From: Xylographa opegraphella
Lineage: Eukaryota
Assembly (NCBI GenBank): GCA_022813865.1
Contig: JALDZX010000012.1
Coordinates: 62,001-126,000, forward strand
Direction: 5' to 3'
Length of the DNA: 64,000 bases
Position numbers and translations under genes: made by a program. Position 1 is the first letter of the stretch; every line of letters begins with the position of its first letter. Shown in pieces: positions 8,846 through 63,836 of this stretch. Under the pieces are notes generated by a model. The model was not told where the DNA came from, did no database searches, and was given only the letters and a program-made list of their open reading frames with translations.

Positions 8846-10648
8846 ATGATCTTCTTACCATCATCTCGTCGCCATCTTCTGTCGGCAGTTGCTATACTTG
8901 CCCTAATCTTAATCTGGCGGTCGAGTTCGAGAGTCCCTACATCAATTTCGGCGCTTGTCCTTCATCAACCCAAAGCGCCACCTGTAGGTATCCATGTCCC
9001 AATTAGGGATCTCAAGCACCATTTCCTCCCATTGGCTAATACCTCTGCCAATCACCTCTCACCACCCAGTCAATATTTCTATGGCTCGCGCAAGGATGCC
9101 CACCCGCAGTCCTCGAATGGCACGTTTGAGGAAGCGTTATGGTCGCAGCCAATACTGAATCCCCAGTTAGAGGTCTTGTGGCGGTGCCCAGTGCAGGCAA
9201 ACAGATTCACCAATCATATCCGACTTCCCAATATCATTCAAAACATCTCGCAGGTCCCGCCTCACCCGGCCAAGCTCGAGACAAGGATTTTCTGGAACCC
9301 TACTATCATTGCCCTGCCATATTGGTCTGAGAACCAGTACCTGGTAGTCAGCAGGATTGTCACTGATGGGAATCATCAAGAGAATGTTATCTGTGAAGCC
9401 AATATATGCTATACCGGGTCCAGCGACAATATACACCCTGGGGAGAAGCCATGCACAGATGAGGACCTGCAGTATCTTGGTCCTTCCGGGGGTCTCAGAT
9501 GTGCCGCAACTCCGGAACGTCTCAGTGTCCCACCTACTCCTGCGGAACGATGCGAGGGAAAGTTTGGGACATATGTGGATATACCTGGTTTCCATGATCC
9601 ACGAATCTTTTACAGCGGGAAAGGCGAGCCTTTGATGATGGTGAATACACAGTAAGCTCTATTTCTTGGTGTCTCCGGTACGTGATGCGAGACTAAGATC
9701 CTCAGATCTCGGTATGCCTGCTTTGGGTTGTGGCTGATCGACCTTCGATCTCTAAATCAACACTTACCTTCATTGCTTTCTTCTTCGCCCAAACACCTCT
9801 CCCTTGGTCCCCTGAAATCATATCCATCACTCACGGAATTGACACGCAATCCGCCCTCGACACGCTCTCCGATTGAGAAGAACTGGATGCTCTTCTATCC
9901 CGAGTCCGGAGAAACTTTCATTCACTACGATATCTCCAACCCCCAATATCCGCTTAGAGGACGCACCTTCGCCAAGGTCATTGGAGACGGCTTGACCACT
10001 ACGAATCTGACCGACCCACTGGAGATCCCCTGCATCCCCGACATTCCAGCAAACGAGCCCGACGCAGTCAAGCGAGGCGGGACATGGCATCAGGCCACCA
10101 ACGCTCTGCGTCTGGTGCTGTGCGACCGCGCGGACAAGAAGTGCAAGCGCACGCCGCACAACACCGTCTTCTTCGCCATCATCCACCGCAAACACCCCAA
10201 CTTCCTCCACCTCCCGCTCCGGTACGAGCGCTACTTCATCGTCTGGGGCGCCAGCCCGGCGTACGGCATGTACGGCATCTCGGCACACCCCATCCTCATG
10301 GCCAACGAGACGGCGAGCGGCTGGCCCATGGACGAGAACTGGGACGACGATCCGACCAATGCAGCGACCGTGGCCGCGCACAAAAGCATCTACGGCGCGA
10401 ACTCGACGGACCCCCACGGCGGGAAGAGGTACTGGGCGTATTTCACCTACACGGTCAGCATCGCGTGGGCGTGGGGCCGGGAGGTGGAGGCGGCGGACAT
10501 GAATGTGGGGTACTTGGATGACGAGGTCGTGCTGGCGATTGGCATCGACGACAAGGCTCAGGGCATGGCGCGCGTCACGGCCCGGGATCTGCTGCAGTGC
10601 ATGAGGGCGTGTCCTGGCCGAGCGCGGTTCGGCGGCAAGGACGGGTAG
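8846..10648 (+). CDS. Type II membrane protein, putative five-bladed beta-propeller glycosyltransferase/phosphorylase-like (GT91/GH130-like), 2 exons
   Basis: N-terminal anchor LLSAVAILALILIW; FWNPTII, GFHDPRIF and IEKNWMLF motifs; intron 9652-9705. The CDS is clear, the function is tentative. Confidence 0.6.
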
Positions 10649-13600
10649 ACTGGGTGTACGCTTCTAAGTTGGGTGTAGTTGTATGTCTAGACAGAGGAAT
10701 GTGCTTGATAGCTAGCTAGGCGAACAGAAACGCCGCATTCACTCAATTCCCAGGTTCCAGCGGATTGGATACTTGTGCTGCTGCTTTATGAAACTATGTG
10801 CAAATCGGCGTGTGGAGAGATGTTCGATGGATGTAGATGAGGCTTAAAGCGAGCGGCGGAGGAGCTTCGCGTGGAAGCCTTTCTACGGGCCAGGAAGGCC
10901 AGAACTGCATGGAGACCTGAGCTCTCTGCTATATGGCTTGTGCTCGCGTGCACCTGACGGTGGTTGATACGGGCTGTACGAGGTGCCAATGCCGGCGGTC
11001 TCGCACGCGAAGACTGGACCGAAGTCATGTTCCAGCGATGATGGCACCCGAGAGACCGGATGGAAAGCGGGAGGGTAGGGCTCCGAGCTCCGAGTCACGG
11101 CCGTGGTGTAGGACACGGGGAAATGCCGTTGGGTGCATTTGATTTCAGAGTCACGGAAAATGTGTAGGCCGTGGGAGAATCTCGTTGGGTGCTTTTGATT
11201 AGTTACATTGGCTTTGATGAAGCAGGACATGATTGTGGTCATGGCTTCAAGATGATGGCTGCACCGTGGCGGCCTTGTGCCTGTGGGTTGATACAAAGGG
11301 CAGGAGAACGAGGTTGAGTGCATTGCCAAGTGCTGTCAGTCAGCTGGAGGATGAATGCATGCCAAAAGCGGAAGATCGTAAACAGCTAATTGCGTCACAG
11401 ATGACGGCCGAACTACAAGACTATTGCTTGTGGAGAGAGATGGAGGCCAAACCATGGTTGTAATGCAACGCAGTGGAGAGAATAATTTCCTTGAAATATT
11501 GGCTGCAAGTGCGTAGCACACTGTGGACAACCCATGCACTCACGCTGCCTCCATTGGAAACTTCTTTCACATTGCACGTGTTTGACGTTTTCAATGGATA
11601 AGACAAGGAATGAACATTGGTGATGTAGCAGTATTGCCCGCAGATATGAAGGGCGACTGGTGGCTTTTTTCCGAACAGTGTGCCACTGCTTCATGGGCTT
11701 CCCCTCGAGATCCAGCACACCCGGTCTGCTCCGGCTGCGCGAATCGAACGAAGCAGCGTTGACATGGAGAGTCAGGCGGATCGAAGGACGCAAGAGCAAG
11801 CGCGATGCTGGCACAAGCAGTCACAGCCGGTGAGGAACGGCCTCTGCTTCCGCTCGGGCTTCGAGGCACCCATGGTGGGAGAACAAAGGGAAGGCAGATC
11901 GATGGAATGTGCGATGATAGATCTCAGAGGGCTCGATCCGGGCAGAGACGGTTATGAGGCGACGACGAGGTGAGGCTGTTCACCGTTCATCAGCGGCTGC
12001 GAGTCTGGCCTCTCCGCAGGCGGTGACACTACCACTAATTGGCCGCACCCGCTGTCAGTTTTCCTCCGTTGGTGCATGCACGAGCAAGCGCATGCATTCT
12101 TGTTCGCTCACGTGCGTTACATCGCGTGCCCCCGGGGCCAGGAGAGCGATCCCCTTCGAGAGCACGGCTAGCCTGTTCTGGGAGGGGAGGACGACTTGAA
12201 AATGGGCGTGGTTGTTTCTGCGTCTTTCCTCGTGCAGAAGTGGTGCGGACCGGAAGCAGAGGGCAGAATCCGGGGGACGGTGATGCACGTCCGTGGTGTG
12301 ATGGGGAGCGGTGCATTGCAGTTGCAGTCGCAGTTTGCAGTTCTGACTTCACTGGGCCCGCTGCGCCAGAAAGAGCAGCTCAATCGGCAATTGTCCGTAC
12401 ATATCTCCCAAGCGGCAAGCATCATCAGATGGCATTGAGGGCATGGGGAAAGGTCTCGGACGCTAGTTGGCCCGACGGTGGCGGCGATCCTCGGACCCTG
12501 GCTGCTGTCGTCGATCACGCGCTGGCTCCAGCCCTGATCCTAGCGTCGATCTTGATGTTCGGGTCGGCGTACAGCTCTACTACCGTAAGGTACCTTACCA
12601 TAATAAGTTACTAGTGGACGTCCAGACCCCACTTGAGCCAGATGTGGACGGAGCAAATAATACGTAGATGTAAAGGTAGATTACCTTACCTAATACAGGA
12701 TCAGAAGTCTACATACCTACGCAGCCACAACATCTACTTCGCTCTCAACAAAAGCTTCAATGATCCTTCCGGCCAAATGAAGCACTGCTGAACCAGGTCA
12801 AGACTTACACATACACAAGAGCCCCTCATGTACATTATGCGTGGCTCTCAACCGTCTACGGCTTGAAAAACCGTGCACCGGCCCCAAGCACCCTTCGTCA
12901 ACGCTCAAACCTCCTCGCCTAGATCTGGCGGAGCTCTTGTACGTGTCCCCATCCCCCGTTCGCTTAGTGGAGATGAACTGATCGATCTCGGGCGTTTCAT
13001 AAACGTTCCTGTCCCGCATCGATCTATCGACCCATGGGAATAGTCCACAGATCTCGAGGTCAAAGCCTTTTCGCCTGCTGACCACGCTTGTAGTCATCGC
13101 CGCAGCACCGAACACGAACCGTTCGTGTGCAGGCAACATATGCGCCGCGAATCTACTCGTAGCCGGGCTTGGAATCGTGCCGGGATCAAATGAACCGGAC
13201 GTTGACCAGCCGCTCGAATTAGGTGGATATAAAGGAGGTGAAGTGCTGGAGTCGGGCTCGGCTTGACGGCAGCATTGGGACACCGGTAGTCTAGATGGAC
13301 AACAACTACCGATGAACGCCACCATGCTCCATGCAGGAAACCAAAGGCTACTCCGTACCTCGTATCATAGAGAAGCGGAATAGCTATGATCAATCGGACG
13401 ACGTGAGAGTGAGAGAAATCCAATAGATGGAAGTGTTAAAAAGGAGATTTGATCACAATCTGTAATGTGGGTGAGCTTAGCAGATCTGCTTCGTACACTA
13501 TAACCCATTGGTGCCTGATCGTCGCCTCCGGCAATTCCGCCCCTCCAGAGCGGAGGCTTCTGGGGAACTTTTACCGCTCCGCAAGGTCAACACCAGGCTA

Positions 13601-36473: not shown

Positions 36474-39400
36474 TCAATATCTCAGCTTTCCCACAATGGA
36501 AAAGGTGTAGGCTGTTTCCGCCTCACCCTTCATCTGCACAAACCACGAACGTCAGCACATACGAGGATGCGAAAAGTTTGAATAACGTAATGGTCGATCG
36601 ACCACATACCTGAATCATGAATACCCTCAGCTTTCCGCCTACGACACCCCCCTCTTTCGCTACTAAGCCCCCTTCGAATGCTTCCCACACACTGACTGCA
36701 ATTCCTGTTCTCGCTACCCTTTCAAAGCAGCTTTCTCCCAGAGTGACGTCAAGTAAAGTCTCCCCCTTCGCCTTTCCAATGACCACAATGCGCTTGTCGT
36801 TCGTAGCTTGCTTTTGCTGCGACGTGTTACCAGAGACAAGAAGTGGGTGTGCATCATTTGTAGGCCGCATAATGGTCAGCCGTGCAGAACCCAGATCTCG
36901 CCACTTCGAGGCCGTTTCGCGGATGTAGAGGCGGATCTTGGCGTTGCTGAGACCGATAGGACCTGCACCTCCAGCGGGAGGTAGCTTGCTTTCATCCGCC
37001 GGAGGACCGCTGATCGGATTGGGCGTTGTAGCACCACTACCACTGGAGTTATCAGAAGAGGTGTAGATACTGGCAGCACGACTACCATTGCGTGATAGTA
37101 CTGTAGACCGAGGGATCGAAAAGCGGCCACCATTCATGCTGAAGCGCTTGAGGGCTGACAAAGCGCTTGACATACTTCCAATGCTACTATCACTCATAGA
37201 AATACTGGGGGTAGGTGCACTGCTGGCACGATAGCTGCTTCTGCTGCCTTGGCCAAGGTTGAACCAGCTGGTGGTTCGGGCACCTCGCGTTGAGTGACTA
37301 CGGTCAAAGGAGGGCACGAAGGAAGAGGTAACACGAGCATTCTGGAGGGCGATATAGGTCGGATTGTTGATGCGAGCGTGATTGATGAGTGCGTAGAGAG
37401 CTTCGCATTCCTCCGGGTTTCGGCTACGGAACATGATGTTGTTATTAGAAACTGTGGTTATTTTGGATTCCGCAGTTGGGGGTGAGCGAATTGATATATC
37501 GAGTGCAGTGCCGCGACGAATCGGGACCAGAGGAGTGAGTTCGAGAGCTATGAGAGGTCGCGGAAGCTTGGAATGTGAAGCTTGGCTTGCTGAAGATATA
37601 CTTGAGGTTGTGTCAGCATCCGGCTGAGAAGCTGAGCCAACATTGTCGGATTGTGAATGCGCTGCTGACATCTCGAAAGCCTCTATCAAACCGGGAGTAA
37701 CCACTACGCTACACTCATCAGGATGAAGGTTTTGCCAAGAGCCTTTCTCAGACCAAAAGAAAATGGTAGCGATCGTCTTCGATGCTTTGTTGGGCTGACA
37801 AGGCACCTTTTTGAAAGGAGCTTGCGAAGCAGACTGTGAGGGTGACAGTGTGCCGTTTGGGAGTGAATATAAAGAGCCTTGTGAAGAAATCTTTGGTGGA
37901 CGTTGAAGCGCACCGAGGGGTACTAGAGGAGTAGGTGCGTCGCCATCCTCAAGTTCTTCATCGTCAGAAGAGTCCGAAACTGAGGTGGCTTCGTTCCGTT
38001 CCACGGTCGATGCGTCCGAATCTGACGATGATTCGGATGCAGTAGATGGCTCATACTCGTGCTTCAGTGGCGAGGAAGATCTTCGGCGAGCGTTACGGCT
38101 TGCTACAGGTCCAAGAACTGGAGTCTGTGGTGAAATTTCATGCACATTGTTCGGAGTGGTATGAAGAGGAGCAGGAGGTGGCTTCTCAGATGAAGGGATT
38201 AGACTGGCAGGGCGTTTCTTGACCAGTCTAGTAGGCGTACTGACAATCAGTTCCTCTTTCGTAGGCTCTTTTGGCCACTCGATTTCCACATCGGGCTGGT
38301 AGATTGGAGACGGCGGAGGGCTCTCTTTTCGCACTTTAGGAATGATTGGCAGCTCTAAGGAAGGCGCAGATGATCGCGATCTGTCATAAGATGGCCGCGC
38401 ATCATGTGGCGGCTTGCTTGGGGTGGGAATAACATTCTTTTGCTTGGAACCTTTCTGTGAACTGGGAGATTCATGGTGTTCGCCTCGTAGTGACTCAAGG
38501 GTTCGGAGAGAAATTTCATGTTCGCGAATTCCATCGCCTGTGGACGTCGGTGATATGGGGCTGCTAGGAGTTTCAGAATGTCTGGGATGTCGTTTTGCCG
38601 TTCTTCGCTTCAGCCCAGAAGCTGAAGTGCCAGCCAAACGTAGAGCTTCGTTTAAATTTCTTGGCGAAGGAATCTCGGTGAGGCATACGTTTGCTCTTTC
38701 TTCAATTTGGTGATTTGAATAGGATTGAGGCCTCGTTAGTGAGGGTGCTGAGCTTGTGACAGGCTGAGGCGTTGGACTTGTTGGAGATCCAGGAGGTCTC
38801 TTCTGCAACCTAGTCCGTTCTCTCGGCACTGGGGATGCTGGCGATGATGATGTCGCGCCATGTTTGCCAGGATTTTCTATCCAGGCATTTGCCGTCGAAA
38901 GTGGCTGTTCTCCAATCGGTACTTCAATCCCCCGAGGGCTTGGGGTTCGACTTTTGCCAGTAGTCACTGGCACTGGAGGTTCAACCGTAACAAGTCCACA
39001 AGTAGGAGTTGTCATTAAAGTTTTCCTTCTTTCGTGTTTAGCTAAAAAGCTTTGTGATCTTATAACCTTGGGAGGAATCGGTATTAATCCTAGCATCTGC
39101 ACCCATTCAAACCCTGTAGACTCGTCGTCACTGTATAGGGAAAGAAGCTCGTGCCATTCAAGTCCATGTCCGTTGGCCCCTCTGATCATAACAATGATTT
39201 CGTTTTCGACGTCTCCATTGCGCGCTGAAGCTTGATTGAATTGCACAGGCGGGAAAAGAAGCCATCGGCCAGTACCATCAACCTCGCATATAAGTAAATC
39301 ACCACTGGTTCCTATGCCTGGAGGATCGTCCCGAAGGAGAAGCTCTACGCGGCAGTCGATCTTCTGACCACTCGAATGTTGGAAAGAAAGATTGAAGTAA

Positions 39401-57383: not shown

Positions 57384-59177
57384 ACACACATGTGTATGAG
57401 TGAAGTGAGTAAGTGCCAATAAGGTAGTTGTTGGAGTAACCATAACATAATCAACTGGCTTTATATAAGGAACAGATTGACCACCCAGAATCGACACCGA
57501 GTCGGACAGGAAACGGAAAAATTAGCTATGAAGGTCCAAGACCTGGGAGAAATTTTGAGCCAAGACGGCAATATCTCTAGGCCAGGCAAATAGAGTGATC
57601 AGTTGCTACGTTCTAGAGAACGAGCATAATCAGACCGTGTTACAATCTATCTTTACTCCATCGCTAATGACCACGGATTCGTAACCTTCGAACACCGTAA
57701 ATTCTAAGAGTGCATGTTCCAGTTTGAATTTTGAGAGAACTTCCCCCGCCTTTCATCGTAATCACGCAATCTCTGCATTTCGGCTTATAAGGGGTTATTA
57801 CGGCACCAAAACTTTGTATGGATAGCGTCATATTCGAGAATTGTAGTTGCATCCTACGGGTCGGCCCGGTTGGCTTGCGCTGAATGGCCAGATCGCCACA
57901 TAGCTTTAGTCTGCGCTGCTGGCCTGCTACATGGCCCGACAAATAAGCTCGCATGATGTATACAATTCTGCGTTAGACCATTGCTTGGTCCAACAATTAT
58001 CTGGGCCACACTCGACAACCGCGACGGATGTCCACACGTCCTACCTTTCAATTACGCCGCCTTCATCTGGACATGGTTGACACTATCCTGGCGAGCGGAC
58101 TGGGGAAGCTGTACGGAGTAGGCCTATTTCTTGTTGGCGCATTTTTGTGGTGCGGTCATACAACACTGGGTTGCAGATATCTACAACCTCCAAGAGACCG
58201 CGAGGGTGTGGACGGCACACTCTTCTCTCCCAGCGGTCTTCCATTTGTGGATGAGCTGTTGTGAAAGACCCCACTAATTGCGTTGAGTACCTTCAATCCG
58301 TGTCGGTCAACGCAGGACAAACCATTAAAGGCCCAGGTACAGAGGCACCGCAGCGATTATCCAATCCTATACTTCGATCTCTTCCACTAGACTCGAGGAA
58401 CACTGTGAGCACGCCCTTGTCTCTGCATCACTATGGTGCAGACAAAGTCACAAGTTGGTCTGCTTAGGGGACAGTAAAACATTAAAGAGTCCGCATTGAG
58501 CTCTACCAGAATCTTCCCTGCCAATTATCAGAGTCTGATTAAATTTTATCAGAGACTTCGTCGTATGCTATTCACCGCAGGTTTAGTTATGGCCAATATT
58601 CATCATATCGAGTCAGATAAGATTCATGTTAAAACTCTTCACCTAACATCAGGCTTGTACCCACACAGCCTCATTCGCCAAGGTTTATCCAGTTTGGTGC
58701 CCGAAATATCATACATGTTGGGAAACTTTGCCGTCAACCATCTCCGTATCAGTGCGGCCCGAACATGAAGTCCATGTAATGGTTGGCGTCTCAATGTCCT
58801 GCATCAGCAGCCTTTGGCACGATATTCCTGGACATTCCGCTAGTCGTTCGATATCCCAACACTACTTGCCAAGCTCAATTTCTTGGTCGTTGTAGATGAG
58901 ACGACAGTATCATACTCGTGCATTCATGGCTGTGGTGTTACATATATCTGTGTTGATCCCCAATTAATATTTTCAGAGCAAATTTCAAGCCCTTCGTCTG
59001 TTACTTACTCCCTTTCGAAAATCACGACGGTGCTCCGGTAGCACTTGTCATTTTTTTGTCTCTTGTTGTCTATATTCTCGTGACCCATCCTCACATCAGG
59101 TGACTCCCTGTGTGTACAGCACCCCTTCCGGTCAAATAGGACAACTAGTTTTTTGGATCTCTTGCTCCATCTTCAAG

Positions 59178-60794
59178 ATGAAATACGCTGTACATCCTAC
59201 TGAGCTACAAATGGCGAGACAATGCTGATAGTATCAGTTGGTATTCGTCGCATCGACGCTCCTAGTCCCATCAACGCTTGCAATAGAAGGTTTCAGAGGT
59301 TCGGTTGTCCGTGGTACGAGCCTCTATCCAGTAAGACATACAAGGTCCGAGCATGGCTCGATATATGGTCCAATGCAGGAGGCTCCGCTACTTCGTAGGG
59401 GCGCGAATGCAGACACGGAAGTTCTATTCGAAGAACGTTCAGCTCATGCCGACGCTTATGCGTTTCCAGAGGCGGCTGCTGCAATCCGTTCTAACGGTAT
59501 CTCGAGGAGGAATCTAGCTACGGTGGGTAGGACTACCACCAAGCTCGGGAGACGCTACGCCAAAACGACCTCGGGTCGTACCTCAAATTCGGAATCTTCA
59601 AAGTCGAAAAAGCCTGACCGGGTAGGACAAGTCCTCAACAATGCCGGACCTGTACTCGACGGTGCAGGGTATGTTATGCAGGGACTAGGTGGATTATTTG
59701 GCCGTGAACTCATCGTGGAAGAAAACACGGTACCTCATGTACACAAGAGGACTGCCAAATCAACCTCGAGTTCGAGCGCAAAGACTCACAAAAGCTCTTC
59801 TTCCCACCATGACCGTGTGGGACAAGTCCTCAATAACGCAGGCCCTGTACTTGACGGTGTTGGGTCAGTCATGCAAGGAATCCAAGGCTTGTCACTACGC
59901 GACCTTACGATGCAAGAAGCTGCCATCTTGCGCGCACGGAGCCTCCGAGCACAAAGACGTCATGCCAAAAAGACTTCCACAAAGTCTACTGGGTCGACTG
60001 GGTCGACTGGATCTTCGCGTGCAAAAAGCGGCACCTCCTCCGGAAAGACCAAACCACAATCCAGCATCGCGAAGCCCAAGCCCAAGCAGAAGACCTCAAG
60101 CTCAAAGTCTTCTCCTCACCGAGATCACGTCGGCCAGGCTATAGAAAACGCAGCACCCATCCTCGACGGCGTCGGCTCTGTCTTGCAAGGTGTCGATTAC
60201 CTCACACAGCGCGATTTGTCGGGGGAAGAACTTGGTTCTCTCGAAGCCCGAAACTTTGGATCAGCCGCAACCCGTGGCCGTTCATTCAACCATTTCTATA
60301 CCGATTCGCTGCAGAACAAGGTCACAACAACTCCTCAAGAGTCGCGAGTGAAGCTCGAGGCGGAGTCGAAACAGCTAGGCAAGCCTAAGTTTGTACGACG
60401 TTCCGCAGCCGTCGGTAGCTACTCCCAGCCTCTTGAGAGAGATGTCGAGAACATCGTAGGCGGTTTGATTGCCCGCGAAGCGGAAGCGGAAGCGGAAGCG
60501 GAAGCGGAAGCGGAAGCTGCAAATGAAATCACCGTCTTACCCAACAGCACCACAACCACGACGACATCCGCAGCTGGCGATCAAGTTGTGAACACCGTCA
60601 GCATTTCTGAGAGCGCAAAGGACGGAAGCTCCGCTGCAGAGATGGAGACCAAGGATGGAGAGAAGAAAGGAAAAGAACACGCGGTCGAGGAGCAGAAGCA
60701 CGATGCAGAGCCTGTACCGAGCATTCCGGCCTCAGTCACCAAGGTTGCTGCACGCGCCGCGGAGATTGTCCGCAGCTGGACCGGGTCGCAGTAG
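59178..60794 (+). CDS. Secreted repeat-containing precursor with Kex2-type sites (KEP-like), 2 exons
   Basis: MKYA | intron 59190-59237 | LVFVASTLLVPSTLA signal peptide; three 30-aa repeats; multiple RR/KR sites; AR-(EA)7 tract. Confidence 0.8.
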
Positions 60795-61280
60795 ACTGCT
60801 GGTGAATGGGACAGGGCAGATGGTGGACATGGAGTTTCATTGGTGAGGTTGGAAATGCTCATTGTTTTCATTCAAGATAGATCATTGGCGTTTCTCGGAT
60901 TTCATGGGAGGGAGGCGGAGGTGAGATCCAGGGGTGCAAAATCACAGCACTGGCGTTTGGTGGTGGGCGTTCAGCAAGTCGGCAAGAGGCTCTTGGGATA
61001 TGTGAGACCGGATTCTTGCATCTTCAGATACATAGGGTAGCTCGAGCAATGATATTGAGATTTACGTATCAGTAAGCAAGAAGCTATGTAAAATTTATAA
61101 TACTGCTATTGTGGTGAGATGGTTGTATATGTACTCGGGTAATATTAGCACCGACAACGGGGATATTGTATCAATGTGAAGCCCCAGAGTACTGGATACT
61201 GAAATATGTGCAACATTGCAATGAATTAACAAGCATAGAAACAATAATGTAAGAGCTAAGCAGGCATAGCATAGCGAATA

Positions 61281-61580
61281 TCAGTCGCTTGCGTGGTTGT
61301 GGGTTCGATGAGCGGAAAAGGGATATATTTCGTAATTAGGTGTCTGCTCTTCAACAAGGGTGGTGCACTGGTATGAGCGCCTGGGCGTAAATTGGTCTCG
61401 CCTATCCTGCAACGGGTTCAAATCCCGGTGCAGGAACCCGCAGTATGTTAATGCCACTGCATATGCCCACAGCTCATCCCAGTGAGGCAGCAACACAGGC
61501 TGCTCCAATACGAAACATGTAGGGCCTTTTCATGGTGATTGGTCGGGATGTCAATCACTGACTGCTGCTCGAAGTTTTTT
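61281..61580 (+). ncRNA. Candidate structured Pol III-type ncRNA with tRNA-like four-way-junction core (unassigned; could be a tRNA-derived SINE)
   Basis: A-box-like TGGTGCACTGG (61361-61371), B-box GGTTCAAATCC (61415-61425), abutting helices, a long enclosing stem and T6 at 61575-61580. G-U pairs favour the + strand. Ends are approximate. Confidence 0.55.
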
Positions 61581-62242
61581 GCCTCCTTGAAGCTTGGTAG
61601 GGAGGGATCACGGAGTAGACGCCTCGGCCCTTTTTTGTTTTGTGGTGACCATACCGGGCTTAGCAAACACTGATTATTTTTTTGTTTCCTTCGTGTCATT
61701 CCCATTTTGACCCACCAAAACGCACCGAGAACTATATGAAAATCCTTATGATTCTTTGCTTCGAGAAACAGGAAGGACAATGATCAACAACATACACAAA
61801 ATCTCTGGCAAGCAATGCTTAAAGTATATACAAGCAAACAAGGGTACGTACAGACTTCCCTTCTTTATACAACGTTATATACCACGGTTTCCCAGATGAT
61901 TATTCAATCAGAAGGCGTGGAACGACCTTTTGCCTCCCTGTGATACCATCAAAGAGGCCTTTCGCCATGCACAGAGCAACATCGAATATTTCGACCAGTG
62001 TGAATTTGGCTGCTTGGCTTCTGGAGCGGCAGACACATTGACAGTCACACCGAGGTGGAGTAAGGAAGCACTCCGAGCTCTGAAGGTTCAGCATTCACGT
62101 AGGCTTCACCAGTATCGGGAAGCTCCTTCCGTTGTGGGCGGTGATGACATCCATCCAATCTTTAGGCAGTTCCTGGGTGCGCTCTCTGTTCTCCAAACAT
62201 TGCTAAAGTGAGATTCCCTTTACGCAACACTTTGGTGGAAAA

Positions 62243-63496
62243 GATGGCCGTAGCACTAAATCGAAATGAGCTCCGGACATGGAGTCAATACATTCGAGAC
62301 ACGTTGATTCCTGAGCTTAAAGATGGGATCGCAGTCGCATTGACCACCAGCATCATAGATGCAATCCGTACCTTTTTGTATGAGCTACGAACCGCACATA
62401 TCGATGTTGACGTTCTCCGATACTCGCGCCTTCACACAGCGCTCAAGGAAGTTTGCGTGATGAGTGATAGATGGCCAACGATGATAACATTACCAGCTGC
62501 AGCGCTGCTTAAGACGTGGGAGATGAGATATGGGCCTCTGAGCGACATTACAGCGGATCTGTGGGGACCTGGAGGTAGATTAGAGGGTCTGGTTAAGCTC
62601 ACGGATGCAGGGAGACTCTCGAATGATGGTACATCCAGAAGGGTTTCATCACCCGTAATGACGACGATACGGCCAAAGAGTACGAAATCTTCTTGGAGTG
62701 TGGAAGGAAGCAATGGACCGTTCTTCGCTATGAAAACAGGCCATAATGGCTTCAGCGTCGGAGAGTATGTAAAGCACAGAAAGCAATACCCCTAGTTGAT
62801 TTTGTACTGATTGACGAGGAAGCTGGTGGATTAAGCCCGCGGCTGCTTACCGGGATGGGATCATACATGGGTCGACCAACGGGATAACAGCAGATATGGA
62901 TGGAGCATACGCCATCTTGATGACTGACATGGAAGAGGTGGAAACTGGTGAGGAAAACATTATCCGTTACTGGGCATCACGAAAAGACCCCGGCTGCCTC
63001 CAGCTAATGAAGAATGTGCATTCGCGCGAAATGGTACGGGTGCTCCGTAGCTGGCGGCTCTGCTCTCGATTGGCGCCAAAGGCAGGTTTGAGATACGACG
63101 GGCTGTGAGTAGGCCAGCCTCTTTTCAATCATTGAGCTGGCTAAACCTTTGCGTAGATATCGCGTATCGGGCTATGGAGTCAAATTGGCAGTCAACCTCC
63201 TTGGCGAGGACGAGTGGCAATACACTTTCGTCCTCGAACGATATCATGACCAGATGAAGCTCGAGAAAGCGCTTTGCCACCCTACTGCGGACGAGATGGA
63301 CGACTGGAGAGCTTACAAGCAGACCAGAGACAGCATCTCGGACAATAGCAATGATGGACCGTCTCCAGCATTTCAAGACGGCGACAAGAAGGTTATGGAT
63401 TGGATGCAAAACAATGCAGGCCAAATCGACGATGGTAGTTTTAAGAAGCCGAACGAGACTGAAGCACGAACAATAACAGAATGGCGGTCTGAGTGA
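62243..63496 (+). CDS. SRA/YDG (PUA-like) domain protein, at least 3 exons; N-terminus uncertain
   Basis: GHNGFSVG.WW..AAAYRDGIIHG..GI..GAYAILM and VRVLRS..APKAGLRYDGLYRV..F.LER..Q. Confidence 0.8.
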
Positions 63497-63836
63497 TTGC
63501 GGCCAGTGGCCGAAGCAAGCAGCTGCGTATCGAAAAAGCAGTCAAAGAAGATAGCGGAGAGCGAAAGCCATTCCAAGCCGTTCCAAGATCCGAAGCCTTT
63601 TCGGGAACTGTGTGTTCTTTCGGCATGCGATGTTGTGTTAGCACCTGCGTTGTGTGCTATTGGTGACTGGAAGCAAAGCGCAGAGCAAAGGTGAAGGCGG
63701 TTGGGCCGTTTGGCTTCAATTGCTCCGACATGCGCAGCAGGACTAGGACCTAAGCCCCTCGCGGTTAGTGGGATTAACTGGCCGTCGCAGGGGCTTAGTG
63801 CGCCCACATCTGAAGAGCCGAGGCCACTCCTGCTGC

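Follow-up and report, generated by a model that had tools for sequence, protein, structure and literature searches.

Positions 61281-61580 of the Xylographa opegraphella DNA analyzed here, a stretch of 64,000 nucleotides to which we refer as the window, raised the question of whether a sequence that can be drawn as an elaborate tRNA-like structure is a conserved RNA gene or a sequence of another class. The original prediction had proposed a structured RNA of about 295 nt with a gap-free four-way junction, a product of RNA polymerase III (Pol III); it had named a tRNA mimic and a tRNA-derived SINE as further options.

In the open reading frame (ORF) listing of the window, the candidate locus lies in a gap of about 1.1-1.4 kb between two plus-strand ORFs, one upstream (59232-60794, 520 aa) and one downstream (from 61930 or 62166 to 62795), neither of which has a Pfam match. 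The window is eukaryotic: its ORFs are broken by introns, and its domains are of fungal type (DH/PH RhoGEF, ammonium transporter, carnosine N-methyltransferase and MFS transporter). One exon product is 100% identical to a protein recorded at NCBI for a Xylographa species and 78-84% identical to proteins of four other named Xylographa species. Judged by these sequences, the host is a lichen-forming ascomycete (Lecanoromycetes) or a very close relative. A scan for bacterial-type promoters and terminators returned 0 and 0, which is not relevant to a eukaryotic host.

The flanking ORFs showed features of their own. Positions 62244-62435 are matched at about 83% (32 differences in 192 nt) by a low-depth contig of X2, a run from another organism; therefore, the ORF at 62166-62795, downstream of the element, is conserved in a relative despite having no Pfam family. 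Within the upstream ORF, a 109-nt direct repeat (59615-59723 and 59810-59918) is 71% alike at a distance of 195 nt, and a stretch of about 40 nt (60477-60516) is matched by several contigs in X1, X2 and X3, with a depth of about 300 in X2. The latter stretch probably represents low-complexity coding sequence that repeats, rather than a mobile element.

A dispersed short repeat and its extent

Contigs of X1, X2 and X3 were aligned on positions 58500-63500 at 80% likeness. Run X1 comprises 31 million letters and contains 95% of the sampled words of the stretch; it is probably the data behind the window's assembly and therefore counts as the genome itself, not as independent support. The X1 depth was that of a single copy (157-164) in all bins outside 60337-60670, a short low-complexity stretch, and 61339-61672, where the mean bin depths were 841 and 606. 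Around the candidate, the depths summed to 549 at 61427-48, 1370 at 61461, 1522 at 61496, 878 at 61500-12 and 716 at 61518-23; by the tool's own warning, such sums at single positions are not copy numbers. X2 and X3, which the same study obtained from different organisms, gave no cover of 61339-61672 at 80% likeness, and X2, in which the relative is present at a depth of only about 2.6, is therefore uninformative.

Six of the 18 X1 contig pieces were less than 99% alike to the window. Among the matches listed, one copy lies on a 125-nt contig (61395-61477, 9 differences), one on a 17.6 kb contig (61401-61492, 10 differences), one on a 23.8 kb contig (61452-61564, 17 differences and 1 gap) and one on a 15.2 kb contig (61471-61580, 7 differences). 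Because overlapping X1 copies differ from each other, positions 61395-61584 match at least three other loci, at about 85-94% identity, and since three of the copies lie in contigs of 17.6, 23.8 and 15.2 kb, they are dispersed in different unique surroundings. Additionally, an exact 81-nt piece (61471-61551) has an X1 depth of 392, about 2.4 times that of a single copy, and a further X1 contig with a depth of about 162 is implied by subtraction at 61501 and 61508. The assembly path of the window itself breaks within the element, at 61477 and 61555, and the 64 kb of the window hold no second copy. Divergence from the window is graded, at 0% (the 81-nt piece), about 6%, about 11% and about 15%, a pattern that fits a family whose copies are of several ages. 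The locus is one copy of a dispersed short repeat, not a unique conserved RNA gene.

The repeated part spans at most 61339-61586 and is non-coding, and the unit is about 230-245 bp long. On the right side, the loose ends of other copies start behind 61580 and 61584, and all flanks differ beyond; past the run of six T, one copy carries two extra T and then a hexamer one letter off the window's GCCTCC, and another is aligned up to 61584. Therefore, the unit ends at 61584-86, with GCCTCC (61581-61586, plus strand) as the last bases shared with the loose ends of other copies. The T6 run (61575-61580, plus strand), a possible Pol III terminator, lies just within the unit, with 4-6 nt between it and the 3′ edge. 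On the left side, the alignments stop at 61395 and 61401, in both cases on insertions or deletions, and the 30-letter loose ends are still related to the 3′ strand of the D-like hairpin and to the AC-like hairpin described below; one copy carries about 14 inserted nt and another a deletion. The tRNA-like head thus belongs to the repeated unit; it is carried by at least two other genomic copies, with indels in the AC-like hairpin, and is found in fewer contigs than the body core.

Downstream of the head lies a body unrelated to tRNA (61440-61574, plus strand), with the hairpins GCAGT/ACTGC, GCAGC/GCTGC and GTGATTGG/TCAATCAC, whose X1 matches show 7-17 differences per approximately 100 nt. The element contains only short stop-to-stop frames without protein relatives: a 57-aa minus-strand frame had no match in a protein search, and a 45-aa minus-strand frame had none when compared with longer proteins. 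A 43-aa plus-strand frame had 2 matches among 1.84 billion representatives, one of them a 2435-aa protein in 30 stretches; we took both as probable low-complexity noise.

The immediate surroundings of the element contain further short motifs. Downstream T-runs (T6 and T7) occur at 61626-61637 and 61686-61692, within about 110 nt past the element, and GGCCCTTTT (61626-34) echoes GGGCCTTTT (61522-30). The single-copy DNA some 60 nt upstream from the head holds another, degenerate B-box-like stretch, GGGTTCGATGAG (61294-61316). No stem surrounds it, on paper it pairs with 61434-42, and it may be what is left of a decayed tRNA or a product of chance.

The predicted fold and the changes in other copies

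By inspection, all of the pairings in the original prediction are present in the sequence. On the plus strand, the head as drawn (61358-61439) consists of a closing stem GGGT/ACCC (61358-61 and 61436-39), a D-like hairpin GGTGC/GCGCC with a 10-nt loop (61362-66 and 61377-81), an AC-like hairpin TGGGCG/CGCCTA with an 11-nt loop (61382-87 and 61399-404) and a minihelix (61405-61435), and the head and body were enclosed in outer stems that pair 61315-21 with 61525-31 and 61328-34 with 61509-15. For the isolated 96 nt of 61350-61445, the minimum free energy (MFE) structure is exactly this gap-free four-way junction, at -39.3 kcal/mol (z -3.10, with 1 of 200 shuffles as good). Against the background of the window, an equal or better fold occurs in 23 of 5326 segments of 96 nt (both strands) and, after regression on G+C, in 8 of 5326, which places the piece in the top 0.2-0.4% of folds, but with equals. 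Better GC-adjusted folds of 96 nt occur at 11681-11776 (minus strand), 38137-38232 (plus strand) and 10097-10192 (minus strand), with residuals of -17.1, -16.8 and -16.6 kcal/mol. The whole 300 nt fold modestly better than their shuffles, with a z-score of -2.65 on the plus strand and -2.81 on the minus strand. The equal quality of the fold on both strands points to inverted repeats at the DNA level and not to a strand-specific RNA.

The gap-free junction held for the isolated 96-nt piece but not for its surroundings: in contexts of 226, 231, 300 and 301 nt, three stems out of four, namely the closing, the D-like and the AC-like one, had a mean pair probability of 0.00. The minihelix paired with a probability of 0.94-1.00 in every context computed, and the GCAGC/GCTGC hairpin reached 0.99 in long contexts. 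Enforcing the cloverleaf cost 7.5 kcal/mol (-79.4 versus -86.9). The winner over its stems is an imperfect inverted repeat between 61366-61389 and 61463-61485 (plus strand; duplex energy -34.7 kcal/mol), which appears in the MFE structure of every long context and whose core (61366-78 and 61472-84) is 92% complementary. Its left arm overlaps the D-like and AC-like hairpins, and its right arm lies within the most conserved part of the repeat family. The pairing of the long outer stem likewise exists, but its left arms (61315-61334, plus strand) lie outside the repeated unit, in a bin of single-copy depth (61172-61338, depth 164), and their partners (61509-31) lie inside repeated DNA. This stem is specific to the candidate locus and is probably fortuitous. 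The four-way junction and the 295-nt outer stem are a false lead and are not features of the repeated unit.

An internal inverted repeat that dominates the predicted structure, together with a fold that is equally good on both strands, would suit a short repeat of another class (foldback or MITE-like, a solo LTR or the terminus of a larger transposon) that captured a tRNA fragment and spread at the DNA level, the B box and the T-run being incidental. We regard this as a possible but not a probable origin. The inverted repeat is internal rather than terminal, and likeness among the copies continues for about 100 nt on its right side; near the ends there is a single inverted pair (61349-59 and 61582-92, 82%), which lies partly outside the shared region, and TG...CA ends are absent. 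Of the usual marks of MITEs and foldback elements, neither terminal inverted repeats nor a duplication of fixed length was found in the candidate copy, whose 5′ end is undefined. We also considered CACTA-type ends at the internal inverted repeat and rejected them, the flanking triplets being different and the copies running beyond. Additionally, in the 17.6 kb contig copy, the left arm of the long-range duplex has diverged and the right arm is unchanged, which speaks against this origin; the long-range duplex is therefore unsupported as well.

The changes in the other copies bear on a second alternative, a lineage-specific family of Pol III noncoding RNA genes in which the window copy would perhaps still function and the others be pseudogenes. 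In the window copy, the stems are flawless and the T arm is that of the consensus. A core of 38 nt (61462-61499) has no substitution listed in the X1 contigs and a single 1-base insertion behind 61496, which would favor such a family, but this invariance is partly an effect of contig collapsing and of the 80% cut-off. The head of the 17.6 kb contig copy carries 61431 C>T, 61432 A>G and 61439 C>T, and all three of these listed changes stay paired as G-T, a faint hint of constraint that also speaks for this family; the AC-like hairpin of the same copy is seemingly rebuilt as a different 5-bp stem. Against it stand stem-breaking changes that are uncompensated. In the body, 61441 C>G (2 contigs) breaks GCAGT/ACTGC, and 61500 C>G, 61501 T>C (3 contigs) and 61502 G>A each break GCAGC/GCTGC, with no compensating change on the partner strands listed in the X1 contigs. 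In the head of the 125-nt contig copy, 61427 G>T and 61432 A>T both break pairs, and the 23.8 kb contig copy has a degenerate T arm in its loose end. The copies look like sequences in neutral decay, of several ages and with at most a faint hint of constraint. With the outer left arm single-copy, the junction lost in context and the body hairpins broken without compensation, the conserved structured RNA that headlined the original prediction is not supported.

The minihelix and known RNA families

The minihelix (61405-61435, plus strand) resembles an acceptor stem on a T arm and consists of 7 bp, an A.G mismatch, 4 bp and a loop of TTCAAAT, followed by A and CCC (61436-39). A search for a T-loop motif capping 11 of 12 Watson-Crick pairs (5+7 register) had a single match in the window and succeeded in 0 of 1000 block shuffles; with G-T pairs allowed, it succeeded in 20 of 1000 shuffles. 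The minihelix is beyond chance, and it is the only robust part of the structure as originally drawn. It may resemble the 3′ half of a eukaryotic tRNA-Glu, and the A and CC (61436-38) after the acceptor-like strand would fit descent from a mature, CCA-tailed tRNA via reverse transcription.

The T arm of the minihelix contains a match, GGTTCAAATCC (61415-61425, plus strand), to the B-box consensus GGTTCRANNCC. The window has 2 matches to this consensus versus 1.0 expected, and 23 of 100 shuffles reach 2; the match is meaningful only because of its location in the T arm. A weak A-box-like stretch (61361-61371, plus strand) agrees with the consensus at 7 of 9 specified positions, and matches of this kind with at most 2 mismatches number 289 in the window versus 277 expected, which is the chance level. 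On their own, the A- and B-box motifs occur at chance frequency.

Chance structure in ordinary intergenic DNA would agree with motifs at this frequency, with folding z-scores as modest as -2.65 to -3.1 and with the 8 of 5326 segments that fold as well after GC adjustment. However, the stretch is repeated elsewhere in the genome and the minihelix was reached in none of the 1000 shuffles, and we find chance hardly credible.

As the original prediction had anticipated, the element matches no known RNA family: a scan of the whole 64 kb against Rfam 15 at gathering thresholds gave 0 matches, including those for SRP, RNase P/MRP, snRNAs, snoRNAs, Y RNA and vault RNA. The best permissive local match scored 20.5 bits versus a gathering threshold of 68, on the opposite strand and to a bacterial sRNA model. 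The statement that it is not a tRNA was likewise upheld. ARAGORN with default settings found no tRNA in the window, and the Rfam tRNA model recovered only the T arm (61413-27), at 11.2 bits versus a gathering threshold of 29. With relaxed settings, ARAGORN called a 'tRNA-Glu(ctc)' at 61368-61435, which we rejected, as there were 41 such calls in the window versus 20-30 in each of 5 shuffles. A C/D or H/ACA snoRNA in the body was also considered and set aside; CTGA and a flanking 4-bp stem are present, and a C box and an ACA motif were not seen by eye. A metagenome scan with a 22-nt word from the body core returned one match, on a high-GC, bacterial-looking contig alike only in that word, which we ascribe to chance, and a search of paper texts for three sequence strings of the element found none.

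Compared with tRNA genes, the element has a T arm with 15 nt identical to the consensus, and its D-like and anticodon-like hairpins follow the usual order. Unlike in tRNA genes, its 5′ acceptor strand lies between the anticodon-like hairpin and the T arm, and the middle loop has 11 nt. The mascRNA/menRNA family is known from vertebrates. Its Rfam model (RF01684) matched 61405-35 as an acceptor and T arm with nothing between, at 11.4 bits versus a gathering threshold of 42.5. The element shares with this family the 7+5 stacking, a T loop of consensus sequence and, after a discriminator-like A, the bases CC, whereas its D and anticodon arms lie upstream and are absent between the two strands. 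Type-2 Pol III noncoding RNA genes with tRNA-like internal or leader promoters include that of vault RNA and, in yeast, the SCR1, RPR1 and SNR52 leaders. These genes are single-copy or conserved, and their partners are known. The element resembles them in the B box within the putative transcribed region, the oligo-T end and the size of 200-300 nt, but it is a diverging multi-copy family with no Rfam match.

These comparisons bear again on the Pol III gene family raised above. In such a family, the minihelix would serve as an internal promoter and as a handle for RNase P, RNase Z and the CCA-adding enzyme. A T6 run downstream and an AT-rich, TATA-like stretch (61323-61330, plus strand) about 30 nt upstream of the head, in the single-copy flank, where it would have only a presumed role, are in keeping with it. 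The lack of an Rfam relative speaks against it, as does geometry: the T loop caps a helix of 11-12 bp, and because of this it would be out of reach of the D-like loop, so the two could not meet as in the elbow of a tRNA and the junction as drawn would fail as a tRNA mimic. On balance, we consider such a gene family unlikely. A more specific form of it, very unlikely in our estimate, is a lichen-fungal Pol III family whose RNA of about 225 nt would carry a free-standing tRNA top half with A-CC at the tip of a long stem; the window gene would be intact and the diverged copies retro-pseudogenes, and the top half would act as a promoter by recruiting TFIIIC and might undergo cleavage, CCA tailing or binding by tRNA enzymes.

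Origin of the repeat

Overall, we favor the reading of the element as a low-copy, dispersed, tRNA-related SINE-like repeat that contains a B box and a T-run, at a probability of roughly 0.55. The 5′ third would be its tRNA-related part, a near-perfect tRNA top half in which an acceptor-like stem of 7 bp and a T arm that doubles as the B box are followed by A and CC. The B box (and the weak A box) would be the binding site of TFIIIC, and TFIIIB would sit some 30 nt upstream of the start, on the AT-rich 61323-30 of the unique flank. Transcription by Pol III would begin near 61350-61358 and end at T6 (61575-80), which would yield an RNA of about 225 nt. In this putative RNA, the 61366-89/61463-85 stem would carry the minihelix at its tip; now and then, a trans-supplied reverse transcriptase may return a copy of the RNA to the genome.

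Of the parts expected in the head of a tRNA-derived SINE, the acceptor-like stem and the T arm with its B box are convincing. The A box does not exceed the chance level, and the head fails tRNA models. In PMC5063351, the fungal tRNA-related SINE AfuSINE2 is described as 140-493 bp long with 1-5 copies in A. fumigatus, nrs1 has 11 copies, and the head of MgSINE folds as a cloverleaf. As far as these descriptions go, the element is like MgSINE, Foxy, nrs1 and AfuSINE2 in being short, non-coding and dispersed at low to moderate copy number, and like fungal SINEs in combining a tRNA-related 5′ part that holds a B box with an unrelated body, a degenerate A box and ages that differ from copy to copy (PMC5063351). 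This likeness rests on descriptions; by eye, we saw none of the element's motifs in the SINE sequences printed in Table 1 of that paper (PMC5063351). Unlike in fungal SINEs, only the top half of a tRNA is recognizable in the element, and a LINE-like 3′ part was not found.

The ends of the element are a difficulty for the SINE-like reading and favor the rival of a repeat of another class. Target-site duplications and an A-rich, simple-repeat or LINE-derived tail are defining features of a SINE. In the element, there is no A-rich or simple-repeat tail, and the unit ends in T6 and GCCTCC, with shared homology extending 4-6 nt beyond the T-run, which counts against a SINE since a transcript ended in the T-run would not carry those bases. 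A target-site duplication around the candidate copy was not found above chance, in what is a weak test, as the 5′ end is undefined and only one copy is readable in full. Exact matches of at least 6 nt between 61250-61400 and 61570-61640 amounted to a single hexamer, as many as chance would give, and it lies 17 nt past the shared boundary. Additionally, the presence of the head in fewer contigs than the body core might reflect a body that belongs to another element, which again favors the rival. The SINE option of the original prediction is thus supported by the dispersed, diverged copies in the genome's DNA run but not by target-site duplications.

A search of the full-text literature for Lecanoromycetes, SINE and transposable elements gave, among the matches listed, none on SINEs by title, and short Pol III-type retroposons are hardly described in lichen-forming fungi. 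The well-kept tRNA top half matters only if a copy is expressed and processed. If the SINE-like reading is true, the finding would be one of routine repeat annotation, with a small added value for lichen-forming fungi.
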